A stretch of DNA of 64,000 bases from an uncultured Acidobacteriota bacterium (GCA_963809485.1 CAWEJX010000008.1:448001-512000); one strand, 5' to 3'. Positions 2,268 to 58,558 are shown, counted from the stretch's first letter. Program-made: numbers and translations. Notes: a model not told the origin generated them from the letters alone.

Positions 2268-2420
2268 GGACTAGTGATCAAGTGACCGGTGAATAGTATT
2301 CAGTGGTCTATGAGCTGGGGACCGTGTGCTGTGAGCAATGAATAGTCGGAAAGGTTCAAACGGCTTTACTGATCACCATCACTCATCGCCGACTATTGAT
2401 CACTGGTCACCAATCACCTT
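2268..2420. repeat. Degenerate 7-mer repeat hairpin (unit ~CAGTGAT/ATCACTG)
   Basis: Left arm agtgatcaagtgaccggtgaatagt; right arm actgatcaccatcactc...gatcactggtcaccaatcacc. Confidence 0.6.
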
Positions 2421-2519
2421 CGGCATGACTTCCCCCCCAAACCATGTTATTTATTTGAGTTGGATACTAGCTAATTACAGTCTGTCGGCCGGTTTCAAGC
2501 GCCAAGTTCAAGGCTGGTC

Positions 2520-4716
2520 ATGAGTTGGGTTACCGTCATCTGGTCCATGGTCGCGTCCGCGTGTCTCACGCTGGCGGCGATGCATTTGCTGATCTGGTGC
2601 AAGAAGCGCACGGCGTGGGCCAATCTGCTCTTTTCCCTGACGGCGGTGGCGACGGCCGGCCTTGGCGGGCTGTGAGTTGTGGATGATGCGGGCGGAGACG
2701 CCCGGACAGTTCGGAACGGCGCTGCGCTGGGTGCATGTTCCGGTCTTCGCGCTCATCGTTGGGCTGGTTGGTTTCGTGCAGACTTATCTGGGGGCCGGTC
2801 GGCGGTGGCTCGCCTGGACCACGTGCGCGGTGCGGGCGTTCTCGCTGCTGCTCAATTTCCTGATGGAGCCGAATGTCAACTACCGCGAGATCACCCGTCT
2901 GCGGCACATCCCATTCCTGGGCGATTCCGTCTCTGTCTGTGAGGGCGTCCCAAGTCCGTGGAACCTCGTCGGCCATCTGAGCCTGCTGTTGCTTGTGATC
3001 TTCGTCGCGGACGCCGGGATCACCGTCTGGCGACGCGGCGACCGGCGGCAGGCAGTGGTAGTGGGTGGTAGCATCGTGTTCTTCGTGCTGGCAGCGACAG
3101 TGCAGACTATGCTGACGCGCTGGGAAGTTTTCCACTGGCCGGAAACCGCGAGCTTATTCTTCCTGGGCATCGTCGCGGCGATGGGTTACGAAATGAGCAT
3201 TGAGGCGCGCCGGGCCGCGGACTTGTCGGACGAACTGCGCCAAAGCAAAGAGTGGGTAAACCTTGCTACGGATTCAGCAGGCGTGGGGATATGGTTATGG
3301 GATTTTAAATCCGGCGTCATATGGGCTACAGAAAAAGCCCGTACACTATACGGTTTTTTATCGGACGAACTGATACCCTTTGAGAAATTTCTTTCCAAGG
3401 TGCACCCCGACGATATTGATTGGGTCGTCCAGGCCTCACAGAAGTGCCTACAGGAAGGCGCTGATTTCCGCGATGACTACAGGATTGTGATGCCTGATGG
3501 AAGCACCCGATGGGTCAGGGTTCTGGCCAAAGCGTTCGTAACGCCCTCTGGAAAGCCAGAGCGTATGACGGGCGTATCTCTTGATATTACCGAGAACAAA
3601 AGGGCGGAGGAAGCGCTGGTACGAAGCCAGCATTTACTCAGAGAGACCGGAAGGTTGGGGAAGGTTGGCGGCTGGGAATTTAATATCGACACGGCGAAAC
3701 AGACATGGACGGAAGAGACTTACAATATCCACGAAGTGGACCTCACCTACGAACCGACAGTAGAAAGAGGACTCGATTTCTATACCACTGATTCCAAGCC
3801 AATAATTGAACGCGCTGTGCAGAGAGCCATCGAGCACGGCGAGCCGTTTGATTTGGAGCTGGAAATCATCACGGCCAAAGGCAATCTTCGGAGCGTAAAT
3901 GCCATTGGGAATGCGGATCTGAAACACCGCAGAGTTTATGGTTTCTTCCAAGACATTACCGAGCGCAAGCGGTCGGAGTTTGAGGCTTTGAATCAGCGCA
4001 ACCAATTAGCTCACGTCGCGCGTATCTCTACGATGGGCGAACTGGCTACGTCGTTGGCGCACGAATTAAGTCAACCGCTGGGCGCCATCCTCCGCAATGC
4101 CGAGGCGGCGGAGCTTTTTCTGCAGGCCACCTCACCGAACCTTGAGGAAGTGCGCGACATCCTGGCGGATATCCAGAAGGACGATCAGCGTGCAGGCGCG
4201 GTGATCGACCGGATGCGCTCGCTGCTGAAGCGGCGCGACGTTGAACACAGCCTGCTTGATTTGAACCTGCTCGCAAACGAAGTCATCAGCCTTATACGCC
4301 CGGAGGCCGGAGCTCGCAAAATCGGGCTGGAGCTTGTCCCCGATTCACCGCTTCCGCCGGTGCGCGGCGACCGGGTTCAATTGCAGCAGGTTTTGCTCAA
4401 TCTTCTGCTCAACGCGATGGACGCGATGAATGACTCCGCGCCTGATGACCGCCGGGTCACCGTGCGCATCCAGGCTGCGCGCGCGCAGGTCGAGGTCGCC
4501 GTGAGCGACACCGGCCAAGGCATTCCGGCGGACAAGCTCGCTAACGTCTTCGAGCCGTTCTTCACCACCAAGCCGAACGGCCTGGGCGTGGGCTTGCCGA
4601 TCTCCCGAAATATCATCGAAGCGCACGGAGGGAGCATCCGGGCGGAAAACGCTTCGGACGGCGGGGCCACCTTCTGCTTCACGCTGCCGGTGGCGAAAGA
4701 GGGAGGCACCGCATGA
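2520..4716 (+). CDS. Membrane PAS-PAS sensor histidine kinase (FixL/NtrB-like), +1 frameshift between 2641 and 2672
   Basis: H-box LAHELSQPL, N-box QVLLNLLLNA, G boxes DTGQG and GLGVGL, two PAS/PAC domains. A hydrophobic N-terminus MSWVTVIWSM... starts at 2520 in a different frame. Confidence 0.9.
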
Positions 4717-5330
4717 ACGACGCCGCGCCCATTGTGCACGTGGTGGACGACGACACGTCGTTTTTGACGGCGGTCGCACGTATGTTGCGCGCATCCGGTT
4801 TCTCGGTGAAGACCTTTGGCTCGCCGGCAGAGTTCCTGGCCTGCCGGGAACTCAACGTCCATGGGTGTGTCCTTGCGGACTTGCGGATGCCCGGCTTGAA
4901 CGGGCTGGAATTGCAGGAGGCACTCGCGAAGGAGGGGCACAGGATGCCGGTTATCTTTCTCAGTGGACATGGAGATATTCCGACCACCGTGCAAGCGATG
5001 CGGCGGGGCGCGGAAGATTTTCTTACGAAGCGCGCGCCGAAGGAGGACTTAATTAATGCCGTGAAACGCGCGCTCGAACGCGATGCTCGTGAGCGCGCGG
5101 AGCGGACGCGTCTGGAAGCGTTGCATGCTCGTTTCGCCGCGCTCACGCCGCGCGAGCTTGAAGTGCTGAAGCACGTCGTGCAGGGAAAACTGAACAAGCA
5201 GATCGCATACGACCTCGGCATCCACGAACGAACGGTGAAACTCCATCGCACCGCCATAACGACCAAGCTGGGTGTTCACTCCACCCCCGAGCTGACGAAA
5301 CTGTGGTTAGAAGCAGGCGAGAGGCGGTGA
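4713..5330 (+). CDS. FixJ/LuxR-family DNA-binding response regulator
   Basis: Receiver domain (VVDDD, DLRMP) plus LuxR HTH (LTPRELEVL...KQIA..LGI..RTVK). ATGA overlap with the kinase. Confidence 0.93.
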   Translation: MNDAAPIVHVVDDDTSFLTAVARMLRASGFSVKTFGSPAEFLACRELNVHGCVLADLRMPGLNGLELQEALAKEGHRMPVIFLSGHGDIPTTVQAMRRGAEDFLTKRAPKEDLINAVKRALERDARERAERTRLEALHARFAALTPRELEVLKHVVQGKLNKQIAYDLGIHERTVKLHRTAITTKLGVHSTPELTKLWLEAGERR

Positions 5331-5445
5331 TCGGTAATCAGTGATTAGTAATCAGTAGGAATATTACTAAAGCCGCCGCCTGACAATTGTTACCGTTTTA
5401 ATGGTTACCGCACATTGATGGTCTATCACTGGTCATCGATCAGCG
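5328..5445. repeat. Degenerate 7-mer repeat hairpin (unit ~CAGTAAT/CAGTGAT) starting at the regulator stop codon
   Basis: tgatcggtaatcagtgattagtaatcagta ... ctatcactggtcatcgatca. Confidence 0.55.
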
Positions 5446-5466
5446 CTCCTTGACCCCTCGTCCAAC

Positions 5467-5485: not shown

Positions 5486-5518
5486 TCAGCCCAGTGTGCC
5501 GGCTGCTATCCTTGTTTT

Positions 5519-5929
5519 ATGAGCAGCAGCCCGAACATCTATGTCGCGGTTATTGATGATGACGAGAGCATTTGCCAATCGGTGAGCCGGTTCCTGCGGG
5601 CCGCTCACATTAATCCGATCACCTATCCATCCGCAGAAGCGTTCCTCGAGGACGCGAAGCATCCGAAGTTTGATTGTCTGGTACTCGACATTCAACTCGA
5701 AGGGATGTCCGGGCTGGATCTGAGCCGGAGACTCTCTTCCGTCCAGGATGCCACTCCAGTCATCTTCATCACGGCACACGATGAACCTAAGGTGCGTGCG
5801 CAGGCGGAGGCATGCGGTTGTGCCGGCTACTTCCGCAAGACGGAATCCGGCGCTGACGTCCTCACTGCCATCCGTCGCGCCATCGGCCTGAAAGATTCTG
5901 AATCCGGGTGCAAGCAGAGAGACCCGTAG
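5519..5929 (+). CDS. Single-domain response regulator (receiver)
   Basis: VIDDD, LDIQL, FITAHD and conserved K motifs; no output domain. Confidence 0.9.
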   Translation: MSSSPNIYVAVIDDDESICQSVSRFLRAAHINPITYPSAEAFLEDAKHPKFDCLVLDIQLEGMSGLDLSRRLSSVQDATPVIFITAHDEPKVRAQAEACGCAGYFRKTESGADVLTAIRRAIGLKDSESGCKQRDP

Positions 5930-6144
5930 CGTAAAGAAACTCAACCCGAAATGACGCCTCTTTATCGATCTCAACCCCCATCCCAGCATCGGATCGGGTT
6001 CAATATAATCGACCAAACGATTGCATCCTTCCCGCCGGAGCAATCCAGACAGTTTTATGGTGAGTAACCGAAAACTTGAAAATCCGTCGCGGATCTCGTA
6101 AATCTCTGCTTCATTCCACCCAAGAATCGATCCCTATCACACCC

Positions 6145-6591
6145 TTACGTTTCGCTCTTATTCAGTTTGGACGGGAGGTGGAGAGGCTTGCTTGGATCAT
6201 AGTGGAACAACTGCGATCCAGTTTCGGTCGGTGCCGGCCGGCGTTTAAGATCTGCTATCCGCCTTTGGATCTCATCTGCAACTGATTCCGTTTCAGCTGG
6301 TATCTTCGTTTTGGGCAACAAGGCAGAATTCTCAGATCGAGTCTTTGGCTCAAGCGATCCGCACTTTTGTGAATTCCGTGTTTTCTTCAAGCGAGCGCGT
6401 ACGAAATCGTTAACGGTGCTACGCGACGCCTGAACATCACAACGTTCGGACAATATTCGCGAAATTTCCCGATATGTGCGACCGCGCCGACGTAGTTCGT
6501 GGATCAACTCGGCGTATGGTTCCAAGCGAGAGCGTGACGGCCTAGGGGGAATAGTTTCAAGAATGGCTCGAAATGCATCATCCTGTATCAT
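6145..6591 (-). CDS. Hypothetical HTH-like DNA-binding protein of the mobile element
   Basis: RGRTYREISRILSERCDVQASRSTVNDFVR resembles an HTH. Co-oriented with the relaxase operon. Start uncertain. Confidence 0.65.
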   Translation of the reverse strand: MIQDDAFRAILETIPPRPSRSRLEPYAELIHELRRRGRTYREISRILSERCDVQASRSTVNDFVRARLKKTRNSQKCGSLEPKTRSENSALLPKTKIPAETESVADEIQRRIADLKRRPAPTETGSQLFHYDPSKPLHLPSKLNKSET

Positions 6592-6600
6592 GATTCGCAC

Positions 6601-6666
6601 GACCGGACAAGAGGCTGACAAGTGCCGAACAAGTGGCGGTCAAAGGCCGGACAAGACCCGGATAGG
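6601..6666. repeat. Six tandem 11-bp iteron-like repeats (consensus nGCCGGACAAG)
   Basis: gaccggacaag aggctgacaag tgccgaacaag tggcggtcaaa ggccggacaag acccggatagg. Confidence 0.7.
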
Positions 6667-6772
6667 GAGCGCGGAGAGCAGGTCCGCGCAATCCTACGCC
6701 GAAGGCTTAGGGATGGTGTCTTCTTAAAAGAAATCAGCAATGGCCAAATGAAATCCATTTTCGATGGCCTCC

Positions 6773-8352: not shown

Positions 8353-8357
8353 GTAGG

Positions 8358-10537: not shown

Positions 10538-10554
10538 CCATGAGAGGAGACCTC

Positions 10555-11637: not shown

Positions 11638-11690
11638 TGGAGTATATCGGAGTACGGATTTAAGTGGCTGGCTGTAAGTTGTTGATTTTA

Positions 11691-26660: not shown

Positions 26661-26676
26661 GCAAGGGAGCGGAGAA

Positions 26677-26761
26677 AATTACGAATTACGAATGACGAAT
26701 TACGAATGAAAACAAGCATCGAATGTTTCAATTCGTCATTCGTAATTCGTATTTCGTAATT
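26677..26761. repeat. 7-mer repeat hairpin (unit ATTACGA/ATGACGA)
   Basis: aattacgaattacgaatgacgaattacgaatga-loop-attcgtcattcgtaattcgtatttcgtaatt. Confidence 0.9.
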
Positions 26762-27222
26762 CATTTGGCGGCTTGTTTACGGGCGAATTCGCCGATAAAC
26801 GGGATCATGTAGCGTTCCCTGCTATAGGCTTTATACATCAGGAACAGCCAATAACAGAAAATCGCCAGGCTGATCAATTTGCTGATCATGTTAAGGATCG
26901 GCCAGAGAAATCCGAAGGGGAAGAATATGCCCCAGATGACGCTGTTCCAGATCGCCCAGAAAACCATTGCGACAATAGTGAAGAAGATGGACTGAAACGC
27001 GTGAAAACGCACAAACGAATCACGCTTGTAGGGCTCCATCGCCAGAAAAAGGATCCCGGTGATGAGCCACAGCAGATAGCACAGCGCCGCAGCCACGTGG
27101 GAGGTCATGCCGGCCCCGGAAGCCGGTTCGCGGCCGCCGGCAGCCGAAACGGGAGATCCGCAAACGGTGCAAAAGACAGCGCCCTCCGCAAGAACCGAAC
27201 CGCATTTCGTGCAAGCCGCCAT
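26761..27222 (-). CDS. Zinc-ribbon + DUF4870-like membrane protein
   Basis: CTKCG...FCTVCG, then AALCYLL...FVRFHAFQS...YMIPFIG. Confidence 0.85.
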   Translation of the reverse strand: MAACTKCGSVLAEGAVFCTVCGSPVSAAGGREPASGAGMTSHVAAALCYLLWLITGILFLAMEPYKRDSFVRFHAFQSIFFTIVAMVFWAIWNSVIWGIFFPFGFLWPILNMISKLISLAIFCYWLFLMYKAYSRERYMIPFIGEFARKQAAK

Positions 27223-27400: not shown

Positions 27401-27451
27401 GATAAAGGATTAAACCGATTCCAACCGCAAAAAACATCTGAAAAGCCTTTT

Positions 27452-27538
27452 GAACCGCAGAATGTCGAATAATGAATGATGAATTTCGAGGTCATAACTT
27501 CTGCGGTTTGATATTCGACATTCGATATTCGATATTCA
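27452..27538. repeat. 7-mer repeat hairpin (unit TCGAATA/TATTCGA) with a CCGCAGAA/TTCTGCGG inner IR
   Basis: aaccgcagaatgtcgaataatgaatgatgaa ... ttctgcggtttgatattcgacattcgatattcgatattc. Confidence 0.7.
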
Positions 27539-27608
27539 AAGCTGATACTGCCTCACCAGCAGAGCCGGTGGATCGCCCATTGGATTCAACAATTCCCGAC
27601 AGAACGAA

Positions 27609-30068
27609 CTAAAGCAGGGAGAGGGGATCAACGTCGACGTGGATTCTGGAGGAGGAAACCTTGTGGCGGGCAAGATCTTCAAAGCATCCCTGGAGCAACG
27701 CCGTAGCGTTTGAATCGGAAAACCATTTCACCAATATCTGCACCCTATGGTTGCCGCGCAGTTTTTCCAGGGGCGCCGGCGCCGGACCCAGCACGCGCGG
27801 CCTCGATCCTTCCGCGCAACCGCGAAAATGTTCTTTCAAACTGCCCGCGACTTTTTCGGCTGTCCGGTTCGCCCTGGATGAGTCAGGATCCGCGATCAGT
27901 ATCTGTATCAGGTTCCGGAATGGGGGATATCCCATCAACCGCCTGAATTCTATCTCCTGGCTGTAGAACCCTGCGTAATCCTGTTTCCTGGCGAAACGCA
28001 GCGCGTAATTTTCCGGATAAAACGACTGCAAAATCACCCTGCCCGGCGCCGATCCCCTGCCTGCCCTGCCCGCAACCTGGGTCAGCAGTTGAAACGTTCG
28101 TTCCGCCGAACGGAAATCGGGAAAAGCGAGCCCGGAGTCCGCTGCAACGACACCAACCAGGGTGACGTCGGGAAAGTCATGCCCTTTGGCCAGAATCTGG
28201 GTCCCGACCAGTAGGTCCAGTTTTCGCCGGGCGAAGTCGAGCAGGGTTGTCCGTAACGCCCCGCGCCGGCGCGATATGTCCCGGTCCAGGCGCGCGATGC
28301 GCGCCGCAGGCAGCAGCGAACGAAGGATGCTTTCGAGCTGCTCCGTGCCCACGCCCGCATAGTATATGTAGGGACCGCCGCAGTTGGTGCAAAGGGACGG
28401 CACCTCCCGCTCCTGTCCGCAGTAGTGACAGGTCAGCGTGTTCTCCTGCTGATGATAGGTCATGCTGACGCTGCAGTCCGTGCAGGTATAAACGTGCCCG
28501 CAGCTGCGGCACAGCAGGGTCCGCGAATAACCCCGCCGGTTCAGCAGAACAATCGCCTGCTCGCCGCGCCGCATGCAGCTGTGCAGCTCCTCCTCCAGCG
28601 TGTGCGACAGAACGGTGTTTTTGCCGTGCCGCTGGAACTCGACGCTCATATCCACGATGGTCACCTGCGGCAAGGGCTTCGCGTCGATCCGCTCCGGCAG
28701 CGAGAAATATTTTATGTCGTTTTTTCCTACGGCCGAGTAATAGGTCTCAACCGAAGGCGTCGCCGAGCCCATCAGCAATACCCCGTTCGTCTGCTGCAGG
28801 CGGTGCCACGCCACTTCGCGAGCGTTGTAGCAGGGCGACTCGTCCTGCTTGTAGGACCCGTCCTGCTCTTCGTCGATAACGACGAGGCGCAAATTCTCCA
28901 GCGGCGCGAAAACCGCGGACCGCGTACCGACCACAACGCTCGACGCTCCTTCGCGAATCCTGCGCCACTGATCGAATCGCTCTCCCGACGACATGCCGCT
29001 GTGCAGCAGGGACACCCGGCCGGGAAAGCGGGACACGACCAGCCGGCTTAGCAGGGGCGTCAGCCCAATTTCCGGCACGAGGAACAATGCGGTCTCTTCC
29101 CGCTTCACGACCTCGGCGATCAGCCTGAGGTATATCTCGGTTTTTCCGCTTCCCGTAATCCCGTGAATCAGGCAGCGCTCCGCTCTGCGTTGCAGGATAA
29201 TTTCCAGAATTTTTTCCACCAGCTCCTTTTGGGAAGGCGTAAGCGTCAAGTGAGCGGCTGCTTCAACCTCGGCCAGATCGGCCGGCACACGATCGATCCT
29301 CGCCGGTCCAATGGCAACAAGGCCCTTCCGTTCCAGGGACCGTGCCGTACTGAGATTGGTTTGGGCAGCTCGCACAGCCTCCTGAAGCAGAATGGGATCG
29401 CGAGCGGATTCGAGAATGGATAATAGCCTTTTCTGCCCGGGAGCCAATCCTTCAAGGATTTCCGGTCCGGCGGGGAGCGCACGAATTCCAAGCTGCTCTT
29501 TTGCTTTTACCCTCGGCTGATCCGGAAGCGTTTCCACTTGAATCCAGCCGCCGGCCAGCAGGGATTCAATCCATCTGTTGGCATTGCGCATTCCGGAATG
29601 GTCCGCCAGTTCTCTGGCGGTCATGGTTGTTGCCTGCGCCAGGATATCGAGCAGTTCATTCTCCTGAGGACGCAATCCCGGCGGCCGCAGCCCGCCGCCC
29701 AGAAGCGTCGCCGCCTTTGCCGTAAGAGCAATCCTTCGGGCCCCCGTAATCTCTGTCCCCGCCGGGAACAGCGCCCTGAAGACTTCTCCGGGAGGCGCAA
29801 AATAGTAGCGCGCAACCCACAGCGCCGTATCCACCAGCGAAACGGGGATTGCGGGTTTGATATCAAGCAGCTGCCTGACGTTGCGCAGTTTCAGGCTGCC
29901 CACCTGGGACGGATCTGGAATTCCGACAACATACCCGGTCACAAGTTTGCGGCCAAAAGGAGCCAGCACGCGCATGCCTGCCGAGACCGGGCCCAGCTCC
30001 CGCGGCACATTATAAGTAAAGGTCTTGCGCACTCCGACCGGCACAGCTACATCGACAATGGTGGACAT
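27609..30068 (-). CDS. priA: Primosomal protein N' (replication restart helicase)
   Basis: GITGSGKTE, DEEQD, SATPS, two CxxC pairs, KGHDFP. Confidence 0.97.
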   Translation of the reverse strand: MSTIVDVAVPVGVRKTFTYNVPRELGPVSAGMRVLAPFGRKLVTGYVVGIPDPSQVGSLKLRNVRQLLDIKPAIPVSLVDTALWVARYYFAPPGEVFRALFPAGTEITGARRIALTAKAATLLGGGLRPPGLRPQENELLDILAQATTMTARELADHSGMRNANRWIESLLAGGWIQVETLPDQPRVKAKEQLGIRALPAGPEILEGLAPGQKRLLSILESARDPILLQEAVRAAQTNLSTARSLERKGLVAIGPARIDRVPADLAEVEAAAHLTLTPSQKELVEKILEIILQRRAERCLIHGITGSGKTEIYLRLIAEVVKREETALFLVPEIGLTPLLSRLVVSRFPGRVSLLHSGMSSGERFDQWRRIREGASSVVVGTRSAVFAPLENLRLVVIDEEQDGSYKQDESPCYNAREVAWHRLQQTNGVLLMGSATPSVETYYSAVGKNDIKYFSLPERIDAKPLPQVTIVDMSVEFQRHGKNTVLSHTLEEELHSCMRRGEQAIVLLNRRGYSRTLLCRSCGHVYTCTDCSVSMTYHQQENTLTCHYCGQEREVPSLCTNCGGPYIYYAGVGTEQLESILRSLLPAARIARLDRDISRRRGALRTTLLDFARRKLDLLVGTQILAKGHDFPDVTLVGVVAADSGLAFPDFRSAERTFQLLTQVAGRAGRGSAPGRVILQSFYPENYALRFARKQDYAGFYSQEIEFRRLMGYPPFRNLIQILIADPDSSRANRTAEKVAGSLKEHFRGCAEGSRPRVLGPAPAPLEKLRGNHRVQILVKWFSDSNATALLQGCFEDLARHKVSSSRIHVDVDPLSLL

Positions 30069-30073
30069 AGGAA

Positions 30074-30146
30074 TTTACAATTGACGATTGACGATTGGAA
30101 ACAAACCGTGGAGGATTTTCAATTGTCAATCGTCAATTGTCAGTTG
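30074..30146. repeat. 7-mer repeat hairpin (unit ATTGACG/CGTCAAT)
   Basis: caattgacgattgacgattgga-loop-tcaattgtcaatcgtcaattgtca. Confidence 0.85.
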
Positions 30147-30148
30147 AG

Positions 30149-30973
30149 TCAGGGTTTGTTCCGGGTCCGCAGGGAAAGCAAATAGTCGCGGACGATCTGC
30201 ACGTCCTCCCAGACTTTGCGCTTTTCGTTTGGATTTCTCAACAGATAGGCGGGATGGAAGGTTGCCATCAGTTTGATGCCCCTGTAATCCAACAGCCGCC
30301 CGCGGAGCCTGCCGATAGGTTCTTTCGTGCGCAGGAGCGTTTGAGACCCGAATAATCCCAGGGCGCAAATCACCTTCGGTTTCACCGCAGCAATCTGACG
30401 AAACAGGAAGGGCTCGCACGCCCCGATCTCGTCCAGCTCGGGATTGCGGTTTTCGGGAGGACGGCATTTGAGAATATTACAGATATAGACTTCCTCCCTG
30501 CTCATTCCCATTGCCTCGATGATCCGGGTGAGCAAATGTCCCGCTCTGCCGACAAACGGCAGGCCCTGCTCGTCTTCATCCGCTCCCGGTGCTTCCCCGA
30601 CAAACATGAGCTCCGCATGCGGATTTCCGGATCCGAAAACGATGTTCTGGCGGGTCGGGCAAAGCTTGCAGCGGCGGCAATCGTTCAGATCGGCTCGTAT
30701 GGCCTCCAGCGATTCCTCCGCCGTTGAAATTGAATCCACCACGGAAATGCCCGCCATCGTTTTTTGCGTGGCGGCCGGCATCGCCGGTTTTCGCGCAGGC
30801 ACCGGGGGGATAGCGGTTTGGGGAACAGGCGCAACCGAGGCCGAGGGCGTGACAGGCTTGCCTGCTGCCGGCCGCTTCCTCGGTTCCTGCTTCCCAACCC
30901 ATTGAACGCCCAGGCTACGGTAAAGCTTGAGATGGCCCAGGATCTGTTCCTCGAGTTGACTCTTATGGCTCAT
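30149..30973 (-). CDS. Family 4 uracil-DNA glycosylase ([4Fe-4S])
   Basis: CRRCKLC, GEAPG, KCRPPENR, FHPAYLLR. Confidence 0.93.
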   Translation of the reverse strand: MSHKSQLEEQILGHLKLYRSLGVQWVGKQEPRKRPAAGKPVTPSASVAPVPQTAIPPVPARKPAMPAATQKTMAGISVVDSISTAEESLEAIRADLNDCRRCKLCPTRQNIVFGSGNPHAELMFVGEAPGADEDEQGLPFVGRAGHLLTRIIEAMGMSREEVYICNILKCRPPENRNPELDEIGACEPFLFRQIAAVKPKVICALGLFGSQTLLRTKEPIGRLRGRLLDYRGIKLMATFHPAYLLRNPNEKRKVWEDVQIVRDYLLSLRTRNKP

Positions 30974-31861
30974 GTACCTAGCTCCAGCTCATCGAGTATG
31001 GCATCGTTGTTGCGCCAGTTCGGGGCTGTGCGGACCTGGAGCCCAAGATATACCTTGCAATCCAGCAATTGCTCCAGTTCCTGCCTGCGCGGCAATCCCC
31101 AGGTCGCGCAGCTGAGAGGCGCCGGCGCCCACGACGATACCCTGCTGGGATTTTTTTTCAACCAGTATGTCCGCCTCGATAACAACCAGTTTGTTTTCGT
31201 CCCTGCGGCTTTCGTCGAACTTCCTGATAAGCACTGCCGAGGTGTACGGCATCTCTTCGCGCATGCGCTCCAGAAGCTTTTCCCGTATAAATTCGGCCGC
31301 CAGAAATCTCTCACTGCGGTCGGTGATCAGCTCCGACTCGTAAAGCGGCTCTCCCTCGGGCAGGTATTCAAAAATCCGGTTGCGCAGCAACTGCAGGTTA
31401 TCACCGGTCCGGGCAGAGATGGGGATGATCTCCAGGAAATTGCACGCGTCCCCGTACCGCTGCATGATGGGAAGCAACCGTGATTTCACAATCGCATCTA
31501 TTTTGTTGAGCAACAGCAGCGCCGGCGTTCCGGCTTTCTTCACAGTCTCCAGCACAAAGCTTTCGCCGTGCCCGAATGATATCGAAGCATCCACAACCAG
31601 AAGCGCCAGGTCGACGCATCTCAGCCCGTCATACACCGTGTGCAGCATGCGCCGGTTCATCCCGTAAGCCGGCTTGTGGATTCCCGGCGTGTCCATGAAA
31701 ACTATTTGCCCGCGCTCCTCGGTCACGATCCCGAGGATCCGGTGACGGGTTGTCTGAGGCTTTTCGGAGACGATCGATATTTTCTGCCCCACGAATGCAT
31801 TCAAAAGCGTGGATTTGCCCGAATTGGGGCGCCCGATGATGACAACAGTGCCGCTTTTCAT
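30970..31861 (-). CDS. era: GTPase Era, +1 frameshift at ~31088
   Basis: GRPNSGKS, QTTR, DTPG, NKID. The KH-domain end (RQELEQLLDCKVYLGLQV...WR) is in a second frame. Confidence 0.93.
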
Positions 31862-31864
31862 ATC

Positions 31865-31982
31865 AAAAGGTGGAAAGTGGAAGGTGGAACGTGAAACGTG
31901 GAACGTGAGAAATGGAAAGTGGATTTACACTCTCCACTTTGCACTTTTCACTTTCCACCTTCCACATTTCACTTTCCACTTT
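31865..31982. repeat. 7-mer repeat hairpin (unit AAAGTGG/CCACTTT)
   Basis: About 8 units on each arm with a short loop; overlaps the last codons of coaBC. Confidence 0.9.
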
Positions 31983-33192
31983 TCGAGTGCACGGGCTTGT
32001 TTGCATTCTGCTTTTTGAGCGCCAGGGCCATATCCAGGATTTTGCCGGCGATGGCTCGCTTGGACTGATCACTGAGCGTCACTGCTTCACCGGACCGGCT
32101 CAAAATGTGGACCGTGGACATATCCGATCCGAAAACACCCGCCGAGACGTCATTGGCCACCAGCAGATCCAGGTTCTTGCGTTCCAGCTTTCTTTTGGCT
32201 GAATCAAGCAGGCGCTCGGTTTCCGCGGCAAATCCAATCAGGACCTGATTCTTCTTTTTCATCCCGAGCTGCGCCAGTATGTCCTCAGTCCGGGTAAGAC
32301 GAAGCATTAGATCGTCGCCGCTTTTTTTGATCTTCTGCGGGGCAGCTGCTTCAGGACGGTAGTCCGCGACGGCGGCGGCCTTTATAACGATGTCCACCTT
32401 GGGGAAGATCCGCATCACCGCATCCTTCATATCCGCCGCAGACCGGACCTGTACCGTGCACGCGCCCGCAGGAGGCGTCAAGGCAGTCGGACCTGAAACC
32501 AGGTAAACCTCCGCTCCCCTGTGCAGCGCAGACTCGGCTACCGCATATCCCATCTTTCCCGAGCTGCGGTTCGACAGAAACCTTACCGGATCGATATCCT
32601 CAACAGTCGGCCCTGCTGTAACCAGCACCTTCAGGCCTGCAAGGGATTTATCTCCTTCGAGCAGATCGAGAATGCGCCTGACGATCACATCTACGGACGC
32701 CAGCTTGCCATCCCCCTCCATTCCGCAGGCCAGAACACCGGGTTCCGGGTCGACAAAGTAATGACCCCTTGCCTTCAGGATTTCGACATTGGCCTGCACC
32801 GCCGGGTGATGCCACATCTCAACATTCATGGCCGGAGCGATCAGCACCGGCGACGGAGTGGAAAGGTAAAGCGTGGAGAGGAAATCGTCGGCGACGCCGT
32901 GCGCGAATTTGCCGAGTATGTTCGCGGTCGCAGGCACTACCGCCAGCATCTGTATCGATTGGGCTACACTGATATGATGGATGTCGCGGTTTTGTCCCGG
33001 CTGAAACATATCCGTAATGACGTTCTGAGTGGATAGGGACTCGAAGGTCAGAGGCGTGACAAATTCGGCGGCAGACCGCGTCAGCACAACCTGCACCGAT
33101 ACTCCGGCCTTCTGCAGACCCCGCATCACCTCGATAGACTTGTAAGCGGCAATACAACCCGTAACACCCAGCGCGATTTTCACGGCGTTCAT
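31969..33192 (-). CDS. coaBC: Bifunctional phosphopantothenoylcysteine decarboxylase/synthetase
   Basis: GCIAAYK, PAMNVEM, TAGPTVEDIDPVR, SSGKMG, GFAAET. Confidence 0.97.
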   Translation of the reverse strand: MNAVKIALGVTGCIAAYKSIEVMRGLQKAGVSVQVVLTRSAAEFVTPLTFESLSTQNVITDMFQPGQNRDIHHISVAQSIQMLAVVPATANILGKFAHGVADDFLSTLYLSTPSPVLIAPAMNVEMWHHPAVQANVEILKARGHYFVDPEPGVLACGMEGDGKLASVDVIVRRILDLLEGDKSLAGLKVLVTAGPTVEDIDPVRFLSNRSSGKMGYAVAESALHRGAEVYLVSGPTALTPPAGACTVQVRSAADMKDAVMRIFPKVDIVIKAAAVADYRPEAAAPQKIKKSGDDLMLRLTRTEDILAQLGMKKKNQVLIGFAAETERLLDSAKRKLERKNLDLLVANDVSAGVFGSDMSTVHILSRSGEAVTLSDQSKRAIAGKILDMALALKKQNANKPVHSKSGK

Positions 33193-34896: not shown

Positions 34897-35002
34897 TCCT
34901 CGCTCCGTTGCAATACCTAAAACTTATTATTATATTGTCTTCAGAACGGTTCGTCAAGGCTTAACCTTTGATATTCCATATCTTATGGTCTTGGGGAGGC
35001 TG

Positions 35003-35204
35003 TAAGGATTTAAGGATCAGAGGATCAGAGGATCAGAGGATCAGAGGATCAAAGGGAAAAAACACAACCAAATTGCCGATGGGGGTCTATTTAGGTAATT
35101 GCGTCTCCTGTCTCTACCCTCTAATCCTTTGTTCCTTGAATCCTCTATTCCCTGAACCCCTTTGATCCTTTGATCCTTTGATCCTTGACTCCTTTGATCC
35201 TTCT
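35003..35204. repeat. 8-mer repeat hairpin (unit AGGATCAG/AGGATCAA versus CCTTTGAT)
   Basis: (aggatcag)x4 on the left arm and (cctttgat)x3+ on the right arm. Confidence 0.9.
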
Positions 35205-35235
35205 ACCCCCCCAACCTTCATCGCCACATACACTA

Positions 35236-37071
35236 TCACTCCCGATTCCCCTGACCCTCCGTAGAGGACTCCTCAGTTTGAAGTCGGAAAAAGCGGCGGT
35301 AGGGGCCATCGTTCGCCATAAGGCTATCGTGGCTCCCGGACTCCACGATTCTGCCCCGGTCAAGCACGAGGATCAGATCGGCGTTGCGTATGGTGGACAG
35401 GCGATGCGCGATTACGAACGTCGTGCGGTCTCGTATAAGATTGGTCAGAGCCTGCTGAACGAGTTTCTCGGATTCCGAATCCAGCGCCGAAGTCGCTTCG
35501 TCCAAAATCAGGATCGGCGCATTTTTAAGAAGGGCGCGCGCGATCGAGATGCGCTGCCGTTCGCCGCCGGAAAGCCTTTGGCCCCTCTCGCCGATCAAGG
35601 TGTCGTACTTCATTGGAAAGCCATTGATGAAATCATCCGCCAGGGCGGCGCGCGCTGCCGCGAAAATATTCTCCTCCGGCGCGTTCACATCCCCGTAAGC
35701 GATGTTGTTCCGAACCGTATCATTGAACAGAAAGGTCTCCTGCGTCACGATGGCGATCTGTTTCCGCAGAGAACTCTGCGTGTATTCGCGGATATCGGTG
35801 CCGTCGATGCGCACAGTACCGGCGGTAGGGTCATAAAAGCGCGGTAATAACCCGACCAGCGTGGTTTTACCCGATCCGCTGCTGCCCACGATCGCAATCA
35901 CCTGGTTCCGTTTGACCTCGAGATGAATGTCTCTCAGGACTTGAGTGGCGCCATTCTGGTCGACGTAATCGAAGGAAACGTTTTGAAATTGGATCGAGCC
36001 GCGAAATCCGTCCAGAGCCCGGGCATCACCCCGGTCCTGGATTTCCTTGTGCGTATCCAGCAATTCCACTATCCGGGACGCTGAAGCAAGAGCCCGTTGT
36101 ATCTGAACATGTATCCGGCTCAGTTTCCGGATCGGGTCGTACATGCGAAAGAGAGCAAACAGCGATCCCCCGAACATCCCCAGCGTCAGGGTCCCTTCCG
36201 CGATGCGCGTGTGGGCATAATACAAAAGCGGAATGAACGCCACCACGCCCAGCAGTTCCATGACAGGGGAATTGACAAAAAGAATGGCGGCGGCTTTCAT
36301 ATTGCTTCGAAACAGCTTGGCTGCGGTTTTCCGGAATCCGTTTTCCTCGTGCTGTTCCATGCCGAACGCCTTGATGATGCGCATTCCCGTAATCGACTGC
36401 TGGAGCTGGTCGTTCAGATCGGCGGCGTCCTCGCGGCCTTTCCGGCTGACGTGCCGTATGCGTTTGCCCATGCCGAGAGTCAACAGGAGAGCCAATGGCG
36501 CGATGAGCAGGGACAGCAGCGCCAGCTTCCAGTCGATGCAGAAGACCAGGATAATCAGGGAAGCCAGCAGAACGGTCTCCCGGAACAATTCCGCCAGGAT
36601 GGTTGAAACCGCCTCCTGAACCTGCTCGACATCGCCGCTCATCCTGGACATGAGACGGCCGGTCGAGTTCAGGGAGAAAAAACCCATGGATTGGCCCAGG
36701 ACGTGGTGGAAAAGCTCATTCCGCAGATCCATCACGACGCTTTGGCCGACATGGCTCATGGAATAATTGGAGTAATACAGGCATACGCCCTTGAGGAGGG
36801 TCAGAATCAGGAGCGCAAGCGAAAGCTGGGTAATCACGCTGCCGGGCATCAGCGAGAGAATAAGCGAGACATACCTTTCAACGAAACTCAGCCTCTGGCC
36901 GGCCGGGCCGGCTTCAATCGATCCTGTGGCAAGAACCTTATCAAAAAGCGGGATTGACAGGGTTGTAGTAGTGGATTCAAAAATGCCGACAAAAAGAAGG
37001 AGCAGCAGAGAAAGAGCCAGTCCGCCCCGGTGAGGCCGTATGAAAGGAAAGAGTCTTCGAAAATCGGTCAT
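35236..37071 (-). CDS. msbA: MsbA-like lipid A/ABC exporter (TMD + NBD)
   Basis: 6 TM helices, GSSGSGKT, LSGGERQR, DEATSALD. Confidence 0.85.
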   Translation of the reverse strand: MTDFRRLFPFIRPHRGGLALSLLLLLFVGIFESTTTTLSIPLFDKVLATGSIEAGPAGQRLSFVERYVSLILSLMPGSVITQLSLALLILTLLKGVCLYYSNYSMSHVGQSVVMDLRNELFHHVLGQSMGFFSLNSTGRLMSRMSGDVEQVQEAVSTILAELFRETVLLASLIILVFCIDWKLALLSLLIAPLALLLTLGMGKRIRHVSRKGREDAADLNDQLQQSITGMRIIKAFGMEQHEENGFRKTAAKLFRSNMKAAAILFVNSPVMELLGVVAFIPLLYYAHTRIAEGTLTLGMFGGSLFALFRMYDPIRKLSRIHVQIQRALASASRIVELLDTHKEIQDRGDARALDGFRGSIQFQNVSFDYVDQNGATQVLRDIHLEVKRNQVIAIVGSSGSGKTTLVGLLPRFYDPTAGTVRIDGTDIREYTQSSLRKQIAIVTQETFLFNDTVRNNIAYGDVNAPEENIFAAARAALADDFINGFPMKYDTLIGERGQRLSGGERQRISIARALLKNAPILILDEATSALDSESEKLVQQALTNLIRDRTTFVIAHRLSTIRNADLILVLDRGRIVESGSHDSLMANDGPYRRFFRLQTEESSTEGQGNRE

Positions 37072-37142: not shown

Positions 37143-37229
37143 GCCACGAATTTCACGAATTGCTGCTTTGTTTTTCATTCGTGGAATTCGTGGCCTTTGT
37201 TTGATATCGAATTTCGAATCTCGAATCTT
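37143..37229. repeat. 9-mer-unit palindrome plus a TCGAATY 7-mer tract abutting MITE-A
   Basis: gccacgaatttcacgaat...attcgtggaattcgtggc; tcgaatttcgaatctcgaatc. Confidence 0.75.
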
Positions 37230-43111: not shown

Positions 43112-43605
43112 AATTTATGATTTACGAATTACGAATGACGAATTACGAATTTAAACACACGGTGATGATTTCCGGTAAGCTGTTTGTTGTACCGGAAGTC
43201 TATTTTCTTTACGGTGCTCGGGACTGGGGCCTTCATGGGATTCACCCGTTGCGCGCCGGTTTCAGATTGGCAACTCTTATCTAATTCCATTGGTAAACCG
43301 GCTCTGCCGGGAGACTCAAAGAGTTTGACAGCTCCGTAATTTGAAACGCTGACGTACGCTGAAAAAATATAAATTTTTTTCGGCGTGGGTCGGCGTCCGT
43401 TCAGCGTGCGTCGGCGTTCAAGACCGGCCTAACGCCTCCAACCGCTTTGAGCGGTTCAAATCTTTCAAGCCTCCGGCTTTGCCGAGGTACCTGACTGCCA
43501 TTGAAGATTGCATTCTGACTATCGACTGAATAAAAAATGATCGCAAAACATCACCGCGCTTTTTAATTCGTCATTCGTCATTCGTCATTCGTAATTCGCA
43601 ATTCG
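43112..43605. repeat. ATTACGA/ATGACGA repeat arms (43112-43152 and 43565-43605) enclosing a ~410-bp loop
   Basis: Same unit as 26677-26761; the arms are inverted; the loop contains MITE-A. Confidence 0.85.
43286..43495 (+). mobile_element. MITE-A copy with a variant interior
   Basis: TAAT|TCCATTGGTAAACC ... GTACCTGAC; small deletions in both hairpins. Confidence 0.82.
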
Positions 43606-50115: not shown

Positions 50116-50256
50116 GTTTTTCAGCGTGCGTCAGCGTTTATCGGCGTGCGTCAGCGTTAAAATATAAGGATGGGCCTCCAGAGTCGGTCTCAAAACGACC
50201 GTCGCGAGATCCTCGCCGGCAGTTATGAGACAGTCTCATGGAGAGCCGTCCTGACT
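50116..50256 (-). mobile_element. MITE-B copy fused to an ACGCTGA repeat tract
   Basis: The reverse complement aligns with 25305-25420, including ATTTTAACGCTGA. Confidence 0.7.
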
Positions 50257-55078: not shown

Positions 55079-55096
55079 CACGACTCTCTCCTCGCT

Positions 55097-55352
55097 GAAC
55101 GTTGAACGTTTGAACGTTAGAACGTTAAACGTTAAAAACAAATCACGTCTTCTGACATGAACGTTTCAATCATCAATCTTTTTTTAAGGTGCAAACCTTG
55201 CAACGTGAAAACGTTTGAACGTTTGAACGTTGAACGTTAAAAACAAATGTGTTTTTCCCAGAATTTGCCGTATCAATGGATACTGCTTTATAAACGTGCA
55301 AACGTTTAAACGTTCTAACGTGCCAACGTTCCAACGTTCTAGCGTTCAACGT
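55097..55352. repeat. AACGTT(T)G 7/8-mer repeat arrays
   Basis: Three clusters of aacgtt-based units; they overlap the stomatin stop. Confidence 0.9.
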
Positions 55353-56100
55353 CTTTTTTGGGCACTAACCAGTCTTTTATGATGTCGATGGGCACGGGGA
55401 AAACAACGGTCGTATTCTTCTCCACGCCGATCTCGGTTAATGTTTGCAGATATCGCAGCTGCAGTGCAACAGGTTCTTTATTTATGACGCCGGCCGCCTC
55501 CGCGAGCTTGGCTGCAGCCTGGAATTCGCCATCGGCGTGAATGATTTTTGCGCGCTTCTCGCGCTCCGCCTCAGCCTGCTTGGCCATGGCCCGCTGCATC
55601 ACCTCGGGCAGGTCCACCTGCTTGACCTCGACAAGGCCGACCTTGATACCCCAGGCGTCCGTGTGCTGATCGAGTATTTCCTGAAGCTTGACGTTCAGCT
55701 TCTCCCGGCGGCTCAGAAGGTCATCCAGTTCGACTTCGCCCAACACCGAACGCAGCGTGGTCTGGGCAAGCTGAGAAGTTGCGTACATATAATTCTCAAC
55801 CTCAACAATTGCCCGCGGGGCGTTCATCACACGGAAATAGACGATCGCATTGACCTTCACCGACACGTTGTCGCGTGTGATGATGTCCTGGGGCGGGACT
55901 TCAAGCACGATCGTCCGCAGGCTGACGCGCACCAGCTTGTAGATCGGCCAGAGGACAAATACCAGGCCGGGGCCCATAGCCTTCGGCAGAAGACGGCCCA
56001 GCCGGAACACGACTCCCCTTTCATACTCCCTAAGAATATGGATCGTGCTCCACAGGTACAGCAGAACGATAACAATGCCTACCAGCAGCGTTGATTCCAT
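55339..56100 (-). CDS. Stomatin/slipin SPFH protein
   Basis: [34 protein letters not shown]. Confidence 0.95.
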
Positions 56101-57417: not shown

Positions 57418-57448
57418 GGCGTTTGGTCTTATTGTAGCACGATGGAGG

Positions 57449-57580
57449 TTAAACGTTGAACGTTTGAACGTTTTAACGTTGAACGTTTGCACGTTTGAAC
57501 GCTAAAAACTATACAAGTTATGGGGATCTCTGTGATCCTCGCGTTTGCTTTTAACGTTTAACGTTTAACGTTCAACGTTT
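57449..57580. repeat. AACGTT 7/8-mer arrays between lipA and nfeD
   Basis: Arrays at 57449-57502 and 57550-57580; the second contains the lipA stop. Confidence 0.88.
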
Positions 57581-58431
57581 TGTTCGTGCGCGTGGTACGA
57601 GGAACGCACGAGCGGCCCCGAAGCGACGTGCCGGAAACCCATGGAATACGCCAAATCGCGGAATTCCCTGAACTCGTCCGGTGTGTAGAATTTCTCCACG
57701 GGCAGGCTTTCGCGGGTCGGCTGCAGATATTGACCCAGCGTCACGATATCCACGTCGGCCTCGCGCAGATCCCTTAATACATCCAGGATCTCATCGCGGC
57801 TTTCACCCAGGCCAAGCATGATGCCGGACTTTGTCGTTACCCGGATGCCGAAGGATTTGGCGTTTGCGAGATGACTGAGGGACCGTTGATAGCGCGATCC
57901 TGCCCGCGCCAGCGGATAAAGCCGCGGAACCGTTTCGACATTGTGGCCCAGAACGTCCGGCACGGCCTCGACAACCGCGCGCAGCGCCTCCGTGCTCCCC
58001 TGGAAATCGGGAATCAGAACCTCGATTCGTATGCCTGGGCAGGAGTCCCGCGTCTTGCGGATTGTCTCGGCAAAAATAGAGGCGCCGCCGTCCTTTAGAT
58101 CGTCCCGGTCCACCGAGGTTATGACGGCATATTTCAGACCCAGTTTCCGGATTGCCTCCGCAATCCGGCGGGGTTCGTCCCGATCGAATGCCGGAGGCAT
58201 GCCGGTCTTCACGGCGCAGAACTTGCACGCCCGTGTGCACACCTCTCCCAGGATCATGAAAGTGGCTGTGCCCGCTCCCCAGCATTCGCCAATGTTGGGG
58301 CAGCGCGCGTCCTCGCAAACCGTATTCAGTTTGTGCTCGTGAACCAGCCCCTTGACCCTGGAATACCCTGCCCCGCCGGGCAGCCTCACCTTCAGCCATT
58401 CCGGCCGGCGCCGATGATTTTCCTGCAGCAT
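57565..58431 (-). CDS. lipA: Lipoyl synthase
   Basis: CEDARCPNIGEC, CTRACKFC, RSSY. Confidence 0.97.
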   Translation of the reverse strand: MLQENHRRRPEWLKVRLPGGAGYSRVKGLVHEHKLNTVCEDARCPNIGECWGAGTATFMILGEVCTRACKFCAVKTGMPPAFDRDEPRRIAEAIRKLGLKYAVITSVDRDDLKDGGASIFAETIRKTRDSCPGIRIEVLIPDFQGSTEALRAVVEAVPDVLGHNVETVPRLYPLARAGSRYQRSLSHLANAKSFGIRVTTKSGIMLGLGESRDEILDVLRDLREADVDIVTLGQYLQPTRESLPVEKFYTPDEFREFRDLAYSMGFRHVASGPLVRSSYHAHEQNVER

Positions 58432-58502
58432 TGCTTCCTCTCAAAAATATTACACTACACCCATTCAATCCCGATTTTTAGCCAATCTCTCCTCCCCCAT
58501 CT

Positions 58503-58558
58503 TTTAACGTTCAACGTTCAAACGTTAGAACGTTTAAACGTTCCAACGTTCAACGCAA
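58503..58558. repeat. AACGTT 7/8-mer array in the divergent lipA/SNF2 promoter region
   Basis: taacgttcaacgttcaaacgttagaacgtttaaacgttccaacgttcaacg. Confidence 0.88.

Follow-up and report, generated by a model that had tools for sequence, protein, structure and literature searches.

Intergenic hairpins with arms of heptamer and octamer tandem repeats in a clade of uncultured Acidobacteriota

Short tandem repeats occupy many of the spacers between genes in a contig of an uncultured Acidobacteriota bacterium (GCA_963809485.1, CAWEJX010000008.1:448001-512000), and the question that they raise is what kind of element takes the form, at locus after locus, of an array of 7-8-nt units followed by its own reverse complement. 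The whole 64,000-nt stretch that was analysed is referred to here as the window. An earlier reading of the same DNA (the original prediction) had taken the repeats for a candidate undescribed element system and had offered two explanations, namely empty sites of small cargo genes or long double-stranded RNA stems for RNase III-type processing of mRNA. It was confirmed that the hairpins are real, being a statistically overwhelming and lineage-wide feature. On the reading preferred below, this hairpin population is particular to one clade of uncultured Acidobacteriota. It belongs to a known but poorly understood class, the intergenic heptamer repeats, here arranged as hairpins.

Arrays were counted with an ungapped detector that allowed periods of 5-12, and the null expectation was taken from 100 dinucleotide-preserving shuffles of the window. 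Sixteen arrays were found, eleven of period 7 and five of period 8 with no other period represented, against a mean of 0.74 and a maximum of 4 in the shuffled sequences, which bore out the claim of pervasive intergenic arrays with this period. The concatenated intergenic DNA (9,442 nt) held 12 arrays where shuffling gave a mean of 0.06 and never more than one. On the gene map each of the 16 falls within a spacer or runs into a gene end, and the density of hairpins is about one per 6 kb. As in long simple-sequence (heptanucleotide) repeats generally, the units fall in the 5-11-nt range, run head to tail beyond chance and are mostly intergenic. Tandem Repeats Finder returned period-7/8 arrays at 26677/26730, 27510, 30080/30115, 31870/31924, 35013/35118, 43122/43566, 55096/55193/55292, 57452/57550 and 58506, in agreement with the original prediction at every array except two degenerate CAGTGAT loci. 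The loci are as follows, positions being counted from the first letter of the window and ORF standing for open reading frame.

2262..2420, plus strand: degenerate hairpin with GTGATCA/GTGACC-type heptamer arms, in the divergent spacer between an MltF-like gene (minus strand) and a PAS histidine kinase gene (plus strand)
5322..5446, plus strand: degenerate hairpin with a GTGATCA/GTGACC-type unit, in the convergent spacer directly past a FixJ-type response regulator gene
26672..26768, minus strand: ATTACGA-unit hairpin between a zinc-ribbon membrane ORF (26761-27252) and the CDF transporter gene; arms 87% complementary (inverted pair I7)
27446..27540, minus strand: weak TATTCGA-unit hairpin in the spacer from PriA to the zinc-ribbon ORF; Tandem Repeats Finder array at 27510-27537
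30068..30150, minus strand: ATTGACG/CAATTGA-unit hairpin filling the 80-nt UDG-PriA spacer (inverted pair I18)
31860..31990, minus strand: GTGGAAA-unit hairpin, about eight units per arm, in the CoaBC-Era spacer (inverted pairs I2, I4 and I5)
34992..35268, minus strand: 277-nt segment with a AGGATCAG-unit (period 8) hairpin (34995-35220), between MsbA and YicC (inverted pair I3)
37204..37228, no strand given: single unpaired TCGAATC array in the MsbA-h682 spacer
43113..43605, minus strand: ATTACGA-unit arms at 43113-43174 and 43542-43605, between HprK and RapZ (inverted pair I1, 56 nt at 84%)
55096..55352, minus strand: three AACGTTn arrays filling the spacer from the SPFH gene to the SPOR gene (inverted pairs I9, I12 and I21)
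57452..57580, minus strand: AACGTTn arrays between LipA and an NfeD/SppA-like gene
58506..58553, no strand given: AACGTTn array that folds on itself, in the divergent spacer between LipA and the SNF2 helicase
62986..63453, no strand given: arms of two CCACGGAT octamers each (62986-63012 and 63427-63453), outside the range of the original prediction, enclosing the longer copy of a 245-nt repeat element

The hairpins lie mostly between co-directional conserved genes, begin at or just past the upstream stop codon and often finish a few nucleotides ahead of the next start. In four spacers the arms abut or overlap stop codons and finish 3-16 nt from the called starts. At 26672..26768 the 5' arm overlaps the stop codon and the 3' arm stops 16 nt short of the called start, and at 31860..31990 the 5' arm overlaps the 3' end of CoaBC and the 3' arm stops about 5 nt before the Era start. 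The segment between MsbA and YicC starts within the last MsbA codons and ends just upstream of a promoter-like YicC site at 34957-34929 (an 11/12 match, the best in the region, just downstream of the hairpin). Between HprK and RapZ the arms are 367 nt apart, and this interval includes a copy of the 245-nt element (43283-43497). The hairpin at 2262..2420 was missed by the strict array detector and was seen on reading the sequence; together with that at 5322-5446 it flanks the PAS histidine kinase and FixJ-type regulator pair (2521-5330) on both sides with GTGATCA-type repeats. Arms also overlap the called ends of ORFs at 31969-31990 (CoaBC), 43585-43605 (HprK), 35236-35268 (MsbA), 55096-55141 (the SPOR-domain gene) and 57452-57492 (the NfeD-like gene), so that automatic ORF starts and ends at these places are unreliable, and arrays of this kind can distort gene calls in metagenome-assembled genomes.

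The layout of an array, a spacer and the reverse-complement array had been described for the clearest loci, and it was borne out. With a looser detector a reverse-complement partner was present for 15 of 18 window arrays, at gaps of 18-415 nt. There are 64 inverted pairs in the window, and most of the 25 listed correspond to array loci, with arms of 25-60 nt and 70-96% complementarity. True pair gaps never exceed 415 nt; wider pairings are chance matches of palindromic AACGTT arrays across genes. The AACGTTn unit is palindromic and its arrays are therefore self-complementary by construction. A 4-nt palindrome in tandem context was seen in about 9 of 15 unit types against some 36% expected, a marginal excess counted by eye on which no claim rests.

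Thirteen window regions were folded as RNA, each being compared with 60 shuffles, and eight were far more stable than their shuffles, with z of about -5 to -10: 26665-26775 (z = -8.1), 30060-30155 (-6.7), 31855-31995 (-9.6), 34990-35225 (-5.5), 43105-43615 (-5.7), 55090-55360 (-6.9), 57440-57590 (-5.2) and 58495-58560 (-5.3). Weaker folds were obtained at 2255-2425 (z = -3.1) and 5320-5450 (z = -3.0), that at 27440-27545 was marginal (z = -1.9), and those at 27270-27345 (z = -0.2) and at the single arm 37195-37240 (z = +0.3) were not significant. The main stems measure 17-58 bp in the 20 hairpins measured. The notion that these stems are interrupted once per unit was dropped; over the 20 hairpins the spacing of interruptions was broad with a mode at 3-5 nt, and in the period-7 hairpins only 5 of 60 spacings fell at 7 nt.

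Relatives were collected by a PriA-based scan that took one genome per species and yielded 73 loci, the best PriA matches being to uncultured Acidobacteriota. PriA identity is 91% in the closest relative (L001) and 58-72% in about 18 more. The window itself consists of densely packed housekeeping genes, mostly on the minus strand, with a G+C content of 49-61% per 2 kb; NCBIfam recognised KdsD/KdsA, the CDF transporter, PriA, family-4 UDG, Era, CoaBC, Gmk, YicC, MsbA, PtsI/HPr/IIA, RapZ, HprK, HPF, RpoN, LptB, PrfB, Lnt, LipA and the SNF2 helicase, and thereby the neighbours that had been named for the interrupted operons (udg-priA, coaBC-era, hprK-rapZ and lipA-nfeD, the last being NfeD/SppA-like). 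The order h682-MsbA-YicC-Gmk-CoaBC-Era-UDG-PriA-(zinc-ribbon ORF)-CDF is common to the window and 18 relatives, so the spacers can be compared one for one. In the syntenic relatives 26 of 57 arrays were paired, as against 2 of 58 in all other loci, which came from other Acidobacteriota classes and other phyla. One of the 73 loci, L063 (about 22 kb, 38% G+C, from an unclassified bacterium), carries nine period-7 arrays, including one perfect four-copy run, with no inverted partner. Such direct-only arrays are the pattern of Beggiatoaceae and cyanobacteria and contrast with the acidobacterial hairpins.

The original prediction held that the unit changes from locus to locus and that its sequence is not shared. 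There are indeed many unit types, and the first part stands to that extent; the second was overstated, as a limited set of unit families (ATTACGA, ATTGACG and AACGTTn) recurs across loci and genomes. ATTACGA occurs at 26677 and 43113 in the window and in L016, each time together with an ATGACGA variant (L016:14681 in the last case). For ATTGACG the count is two spacers and up to six genomes, and ATTTACG accompanies it at two spacers each in L001, L013 and L014. AACGTTn was found in three window spacers as well as in L001 and L020. Units AAGGATCA, GAATATC and AAAGTGG (the last in imperfect copies) each occupy one window locus and no other site in the sequences compared, and AGGATCAG was confined to the window among all loci compared. 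Sorted by exact unit, the 75 arrays of the window and 18 relatives make 43 classes, and loops and flanks differ between loci that share a unit. Single-linkage clustering at one mismatch reduced the 43 classes to 18 groups, a figure that merges unrelated units and serves only the point of recurrence.

Comparison of orthologous spacers revealed both persistence and rapid turnover. The UDG-PriA spacer carries a hairpin of the ATTGACG/ATTTACG family in the window, L001, L006, L010, L013 and L014. The spacer ahead of the CDF gene (h163-CDF) carries ATTGACG-family hairpins in L001, L004, L005, L013 and L014, and ATTACGA in the window. The hairpins at these two spacers keep their unit family down to about 65% PriA identity (65-72%), where the surrounding spacer can no longer be aligned. 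Persistence at two spacers across such deep divergence, taken with the placement of the hairpins, argues that at least some of them are kept.

Turnover is evident even against L001. The CoaBC-Era spacer contains five unit families across lineages: GTGGAAA arms in the window, a short AACGTTC run in L001 (from which the window hairpin is missing), GACAGGA arms in L004 with one arm in L003, GGAGTCA arms in L014 and GAAGGTC-like arms in L002, L012 and L020; nothing of the kind is present there in L007, L008, L009, L013 or L016. The 277-nt segment between MsbA and YicC was seen in the window alone; it is absent from L001, and the spacer is no longer than 176 nt in 10 of 14 relatives; because of this insertion the C-terminal tail of the window MsbA differs from that of L001. 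About 256 extra nucleotides follow PriA in the window relative to L001, and these include the TATTCGA hairpin at 27446..27540. Over eight compared spacers the number with paired arrays was five in the window (plus one lone arm), five in L014, three each in L004 and L013 and two in L001. One-armed remnants were seen in L003, L004, L006, L010, L012 and L020 and at 37204 in the window, where the orthologous spacer of L004 has a full TCGAATC hairpin.

Changes in the two arms have also gone together. At UDG-PriA, L001 is one unit longer than the window on each arm. At h163-CDF an identical U-A to A-U swap sets four consecutive units of the window apart from five relatives (alignment columns 20/88, 27/81, 34/74 and 41/67), and two-sided change has left pairing intact in 6 of 27 predicted pairs. 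Eight matching substitutions that arose independently are not credible, so that in the window either a variant unit and its mirror image would have spread through both arms or the whole hairpin would have been replaced or converted by one of ATTACGA type.

The label undescribed was too strong, since precedents are found in the relevant parts of PMC2700814, PMC4990558 and PMC12721329. The nearest match in architecture comes from Geobacter metallireducens, for which PMC2700814 (2009), in its account of these sites, describes intergenic paired sites on opposite strands, made of 3-5 tandem 7-9-mers at a variable distance and belonging to several classes; some lie between operon genes (proBA) and insertion sequence (IS) elements have inserted beside some. 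The same account read them, as a guess, as binding sites of integration host factor (IHF) or HU, and does not go on to explain them. The window shows the same paired arrays with variable gaps, and the unit shared by L014 and L016 fits the class 3 consensus by eye, although no window unit was matched. As described in that source, the Geobacter sites form a few classes of tens of copies each, found by BLAST, whereas the window holds many units, several of them single, mostly with short loops in tight hairpins, and the phylum is a different one. The nearest match in mechanism is the hmw1A 5' untranslated region (UTR) of Haemophilus influenzae, where, according to the part of PMC12721329 that deals with it, one arm of a long and imperfect hairpin, itself cut by RNase III, consists of a transcribed heptamer array, and where change in repeat number needs the hairpin, transcription and RNase III and serves phase variation of an adhesin. 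As there described, hmw1A is a single 5'-UTR locus with a G-rich second arm, whereas in the window both arms are arrays and the many loci lie mostly between housekeeping cistrons. The nearest element type is the intervening sequence (IVS) in the 23S rRNA of Coxiella burnetii, whose terminal stem of about 28 bp contains 2-3 tandem heptamers of strain-variable copy number and is cut within by RNase III (described in part of PMC4990558); its unit, as given there, resembles that of L003 and L004. IVSs lie in 23S rRNA helices and often have a small ORF, whereas the window hairpins lie in mRNA spacers and enclose none. A 23S IVS as such was ruled out for the window, which has no rRNA by Rfam and has all its hairpins between protein genes, with no ORF between the arms.

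In genomic behaviour the nearest match is with the repetitive extragenic palindromic (REP) sequences, together with bacterial interspersed mosaic elements (BIMEs) and the REP-derived hairpins known as REPINs. These are abundant imperfect spacer palindromes, found in or after operons, which stabilise upstream mRNA and are gained and lost between strains; REPs form families with one conserved sequence of 20-40 nt and are mobilised by REP-associated tyrosine transposases (RAYTs). The window hairpins differ in having tandem-repeat arms, in having no sequence common to all loci and in the lack of a gene resembling a RAYT (Y1 transposase) among the 50 window ORFs scanned. The short tandemly repeated repetitive sequences of cyanobacteria are a further case of intergenic heptanucleotide simple repeats. 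In the portion of PMC4679880 concerned, heptanucleotides are given as the commonest long simple repeats in many prokaryotes and ascribed to polymerase slippage, and intergenic TAACTGA repeats are described from Beggiatoaceae, cyanobacteria and Bacteroidetes; intergenic heptamer repeats of Nostoc are described in part of bioRxiv 10.1101/2022.06.06.494920. As far as these accounts go, such repeats share with the window tandem 7-nt runs in intergenic DNA that often reach start codons, with a favoured period of 7, but they consist of one or a few units used across the genome and repeated in the same direction, where the window has many units with reverse-complement partner arrays; in the Beggiatoa genome one set among 170 is given as inverted (same part of PMC4679880). 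Compared with these cases the difference lies in arms that are both arrays, in coexisting unit families, short loops and clade-wide occurrence in spacers between housekeeping cistrons, and in the phylum. No description of such hairpins in Acidobacteria was found in the literature searched. The function of heptanucleotide repeats and the reason for the 7-nt period are left open in the relevant parts of the two heptamer studies (PMC4679880; bioRxiv 10.1101/2022.06.06.494920).

What process could produce such hairpins, and what would they do? The reading preferred here, to which a probability of roughly 45% is given, is that the arrays would arise at the DNA level by slippage and inverted duplication and would persist as intercistronic double-stranded RNA stems, serving in RNase III-type processing or as a 3'-end barrier. 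The original prediction was right that simple slippage is insufficient, in that slippage covers growth within an arm and fails to explain the mirror arm; a further step is needed, be it inverted duplication, copying by fold-back, conversion, or the arrival of a complete hairpin by insertion. From the comparisons, units would be gained, lost and homogenised within arms by slippage-type events, and whole hairpins would be made, replaced and removed through inverted duplication, insertion or conversion within a unit family; the 277-nt indel and the four-unit swap fit such events. Judging from their position and from the published precedents, the hairpins would lie inside transcripts between cistrons as stems of 17-58 bp. 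There they would most likely act as RNase III-type processing sites or as barriers that shield upstream 3' ends, and in either case neighbouring cistrons could differ in stability and the start region downstream would be masked. They would work much as REP/BIME hairpins or 23S IVS stems do, with simple repeats in place of a single conserved sequence. The hairpin between MsbA and YicC, at a gene end just ahead of a promoter-like site, is placed as a 3'-end structure would be. RNase III-type processing, already suggested in the original prediction, is a plausible function and the best available functional reading.

Several observations weigh against this reading. In only 14 of 32 hairpins is the fold of the sense strand the more stable one, so the asymmetry of G-U and A-C apposition expected from selection on one RNA strand is not seen, and complementarity seems to have been made at the DNA level and not adjusted on a single strand of RNA. 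Read in the sense direction, 27 of 32 hairpins begin with their purine-rich arm, a count over non-independent hairpins whose halves include loops and flanks, with the directions of transcription and replication confounded here. Arm lengths are weakly correlated (Spearman 0.42, p = 0.08, n = 18 pairs). Three of 11 window loci occupy divergent (2262 and 58506) or convergent (5322) spacers, where an intercistronic role is inapplicable. At UDG-PriA and h163-CDF it is the unit sequence, beyond pairing, that is conserved across genomes, as would be expected more of copying or of recognition by sequence than of an RNA whose role is structural alone. No paired arrays were present in the compared spacers of L002, L008, L009, L011, L015 and L021, and with so many close relatives lacking hairpins at the same spacers any function must be dispensable. 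Finally, ORFs were called from the first start, and the called start codons from which distances were taken may be wrong.

A bolder extension would make the process self-reinforcing. Folding of the transcript and RNase III-type cleavage would themselves drive the matched expansion, contraction and homogenisation of both DNA arms, giving a lineage-wide hairpin punctuation of operons, with the same process behind the Geobacter paired sites, the intergenic heptamer repeats of cyanobacteria and Beggiatoaceae and the stems of 23S IVSs. Such coupling of RNA structure to repeat dynamics is hinted at by the Haemophilus hmw locus, as described in part of PMC12721329, and the extension as a whole is regarded as improbable.

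Of the other explanations the one that survives best is that the hairpins are a neutral or selfish by-product, in which the replication and repair of this clade let palindromic seeds grow by slippage and fold-back copying, the results being tolerated in spacers only and bringing no benefit. The speed of gain and loss against a relative with 91% PriA identity, the relatives without hairpins at the same spacers, the equal stability of sense and antisense folds and the one-armed remnants all agree with this, and the same genome contains other near-perfect inverted duplications (63147-63333). The retention of one unit family at two orthologous spacers with unalignable surroundings does not, nor does the survival of pairing through double changes, and the bias towards a purine-rich first arm, with the qualifications already attached to it, points the same way. 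A by-product is accordingly judged unlikely, while still deserving serious attention.

The hairpins may alternatively be dispersed mobile elements like miniature inverted-repeat transposable elements (MITEs) or REPINs, each unit family being an element family copied by a trans-acting transposase or by conversion, with the units as binding sites. Unit families with the same mixture of variants at non-orthologous loci (ATTACGA with ATGACGA, ATTGACG with ATTTACG, and AACGTTn) are what such copying would leave, as are the clean presence or absence of 277 nt reaching into the 3' end of MsbA and the apparent replacement of the window h163-CDF hairpin by one of ATTACGA type. However, copies of one family share the unit only and differ in loops, copy number and the sequence adjoining the arms, and no near-identical copies of the hairpins were met among the loci compared. 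No target-site duplication was found at the single junction inspected, the 50 window ORFs scanned included no relevant transposase, and the three units restricted to one window locus each have no second copy in the sequences compared. REP or REPIN in the strict sense of one conserved shared palindrome was rejected on the 43 exact unit classes among 75 arrays. Mobility of this sort is considered a rather improbable account.

Another proposal, modelled on the global regulator sites suggested for G. metallireducens, is that abundant nucleoid or regulatory proteins, such as IHF or HU, would bind to the DNA of the arrays. The layout agrees with the description of opposite-strand paired sites given in part of PMC2700814, the fit of the L014/L016 unit to class 3 of that source was judged by eye, and the conservation of unit sequence at two spacers would be expected of binding sites. 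On the other hand, at least a dozen unrelated units in one 64-kb window would require many proteins, and the arrays lie between cistrons and not at promoters. The period of 7-8 bp is also off the helical repeat of DNA. Even in Geobacter the IHF/HU idea has no experimental backing in the sections of PMC2700814 concerned, and binding sites appear quite improbable as an explanation.

The first of the two original explanations, that the hairpins are footprints of gene cassettes (empty sites of small mobile genes of the IVS/four-helix-bundle, GxxExxY or integron-like kind that move between arms), has become very hard to sustain. The Coxiella IVS, with its heptamer-containing stem and small ORF (PMC4990558, in part), is an encouraging parallel, two window hairpins do enclose an insert, and in L012, L020 and L002 an ORF stands between AACGTT-type arrays where the window has another gene. 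That ORF nevertheless encodes a B3_4-domain protein (Pfam), the window inserts are the non-coding 245-nt repeat, and no ORF lies inside any of the inverted array pairs listed for the window and relatives. The suggestion in the original prediction that four-helix-bundle/IVS and GxxExxY genes are flanked by such arms was not supported, as none of the 15 small or flanked ORFs scanned matched what we take to be the Pfam families of IVS/four-helix-bundle (S23p) or GxxExxY type. Flanking genes are housekeeping genes in an order conserved over 18 relatives, on which ground an integron attC or cassette array, defined by a hairpin site following every promoterless cassette ORF, variable cassettes and a nearby integron integrase, was also rejected; the sole tyrosine recombinase of the window (10534-11637) adjoins tRNA-Gly and scores far below all cut-offs.

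Ordinary intrinsic terminators, for which stable stems past stop codons and the one stem at a gene end just ahead of a promoter-like site might be cited, can be dismissed, since 25000-44900 holds 20 terminator-like sites against 20.5 expected, none of which coincides with a repeat hairpin, the stems, of AT-rich to mixed composition, have no T-run after them, and many of the hairpins fill very short spacers in apparent operons. An Rfam 15 search of the window gave a single tRNA at gathering score and no family match to a hairpin; at E <= 0.5 only miRNA-precursor-like resemblances appeared, at 27-35 bits against cut-offs of 73-97.

The clade offers a dense natural experiment, in which orthologous spacers of about 20 genomes are found with the hairpin present, absent, one-armed, replaced by another unit or changed in copy number on both arms. 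This makes it possible to test whether the arms change jointly, whether RNA folding and RNase III are involved, and whether the stems set the relative expression of neighbouring housekeeping genes.

Some of the hairpins enclose or adjoin a second repeat, a structured non-coding element of 245 nt that is present in six window copies of 85-90% identity (a by-eye estimate from the alignment):

17489-17730, plus strand: copy of the 245-nt element
19603-19862, plus strand: copy of the 245-nt element
37228-37469, plus strand: copy of the 245-nt element
43283-43497, minus strand: copy of the 245-nt element
63026-63425, minus strand: copy with an internal insertion
25387-25523, minus strand: internally deleted copy

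The search used an nhmmer profile built from four copies, and a row at 20-270 of the window was left out as not being a copy. The copy inside 43113-43605 was matched at E = 3e-66, and the interrupted one at 63026-63150 and 63297-63425. Several small hairpins lie within the element, as does a run of period-10 repeats that accounts for the period-10 rows of Tandem Repeats Finder. It matched no Rfam family and was not found in the loci of the relatives, save for a 35-nt fragment at 9221-9255 of L001. With near-identical copies at many loci, as is usual in MITEs, it looks like a recently active MITE or a small RNA gene family. Three copies lie within inverted-repeat arms and three adjoin hairpins; because the hairpins at 43113-43605 and 62986-63453 enclose copies, the repeat hairpins may be favoured insertion sites. 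REP sequences likewise serve as targets of some IS elements.

A family of two-octamer hairpins, with CCACGAAT/CCACGGAT arms after an A-run, occurs at 19880-19944, at 37134-37203 and as the arms at 62986-63012 and 63427-63453, each adjoining or enclosing a copy of the 245-nt element (inverted pairs I10, I14 and I19). Inside the copy at 63026-63425 there are nested near-perfect inverted repeats (63147-63333) with arms of 30 and 31 nt and 97% complementarity, of which one arm is element sequence and the other an inverted copy of it; the structure either arose recently by inverted duplication or represents the full-length form, whose palindrome the other copies have lost. The deleted copy at 25387-25523 is enclosed by a 35-nt non-tandem inverted repeat of 86% complementarity (25298-25332 and 25620-25654). 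Similar sequence recurs near 50200 (50180-50237), and the two probably represent another spacer repeat family.

Three further observations concern the genes of the window. The interval 5486-11765 is likely to be an integrated element adjoining tRNA-Gly(CCC) (11691-11765): it includes the tyrosine recombinase mentioned above, a ParA-like ATPase (9140-9862), a TraA/RecD-like helicase fragment (7080-8339) and several ORFs without a family, and a HipA-type kinase gene (12658-13902) comes after it. The PrfB match (51687-52631) begins at profile position 48, so the N-terminal part must be in another frame, presumably through the well-known programmed +1 frameshift of prfB. A single ORF of 842 aa at 47566-50094 matches LptC at its start and LptA near its end, and is either an unusually long lipopolysaccharide-transport fusion protein or a mis-joined ORF call.

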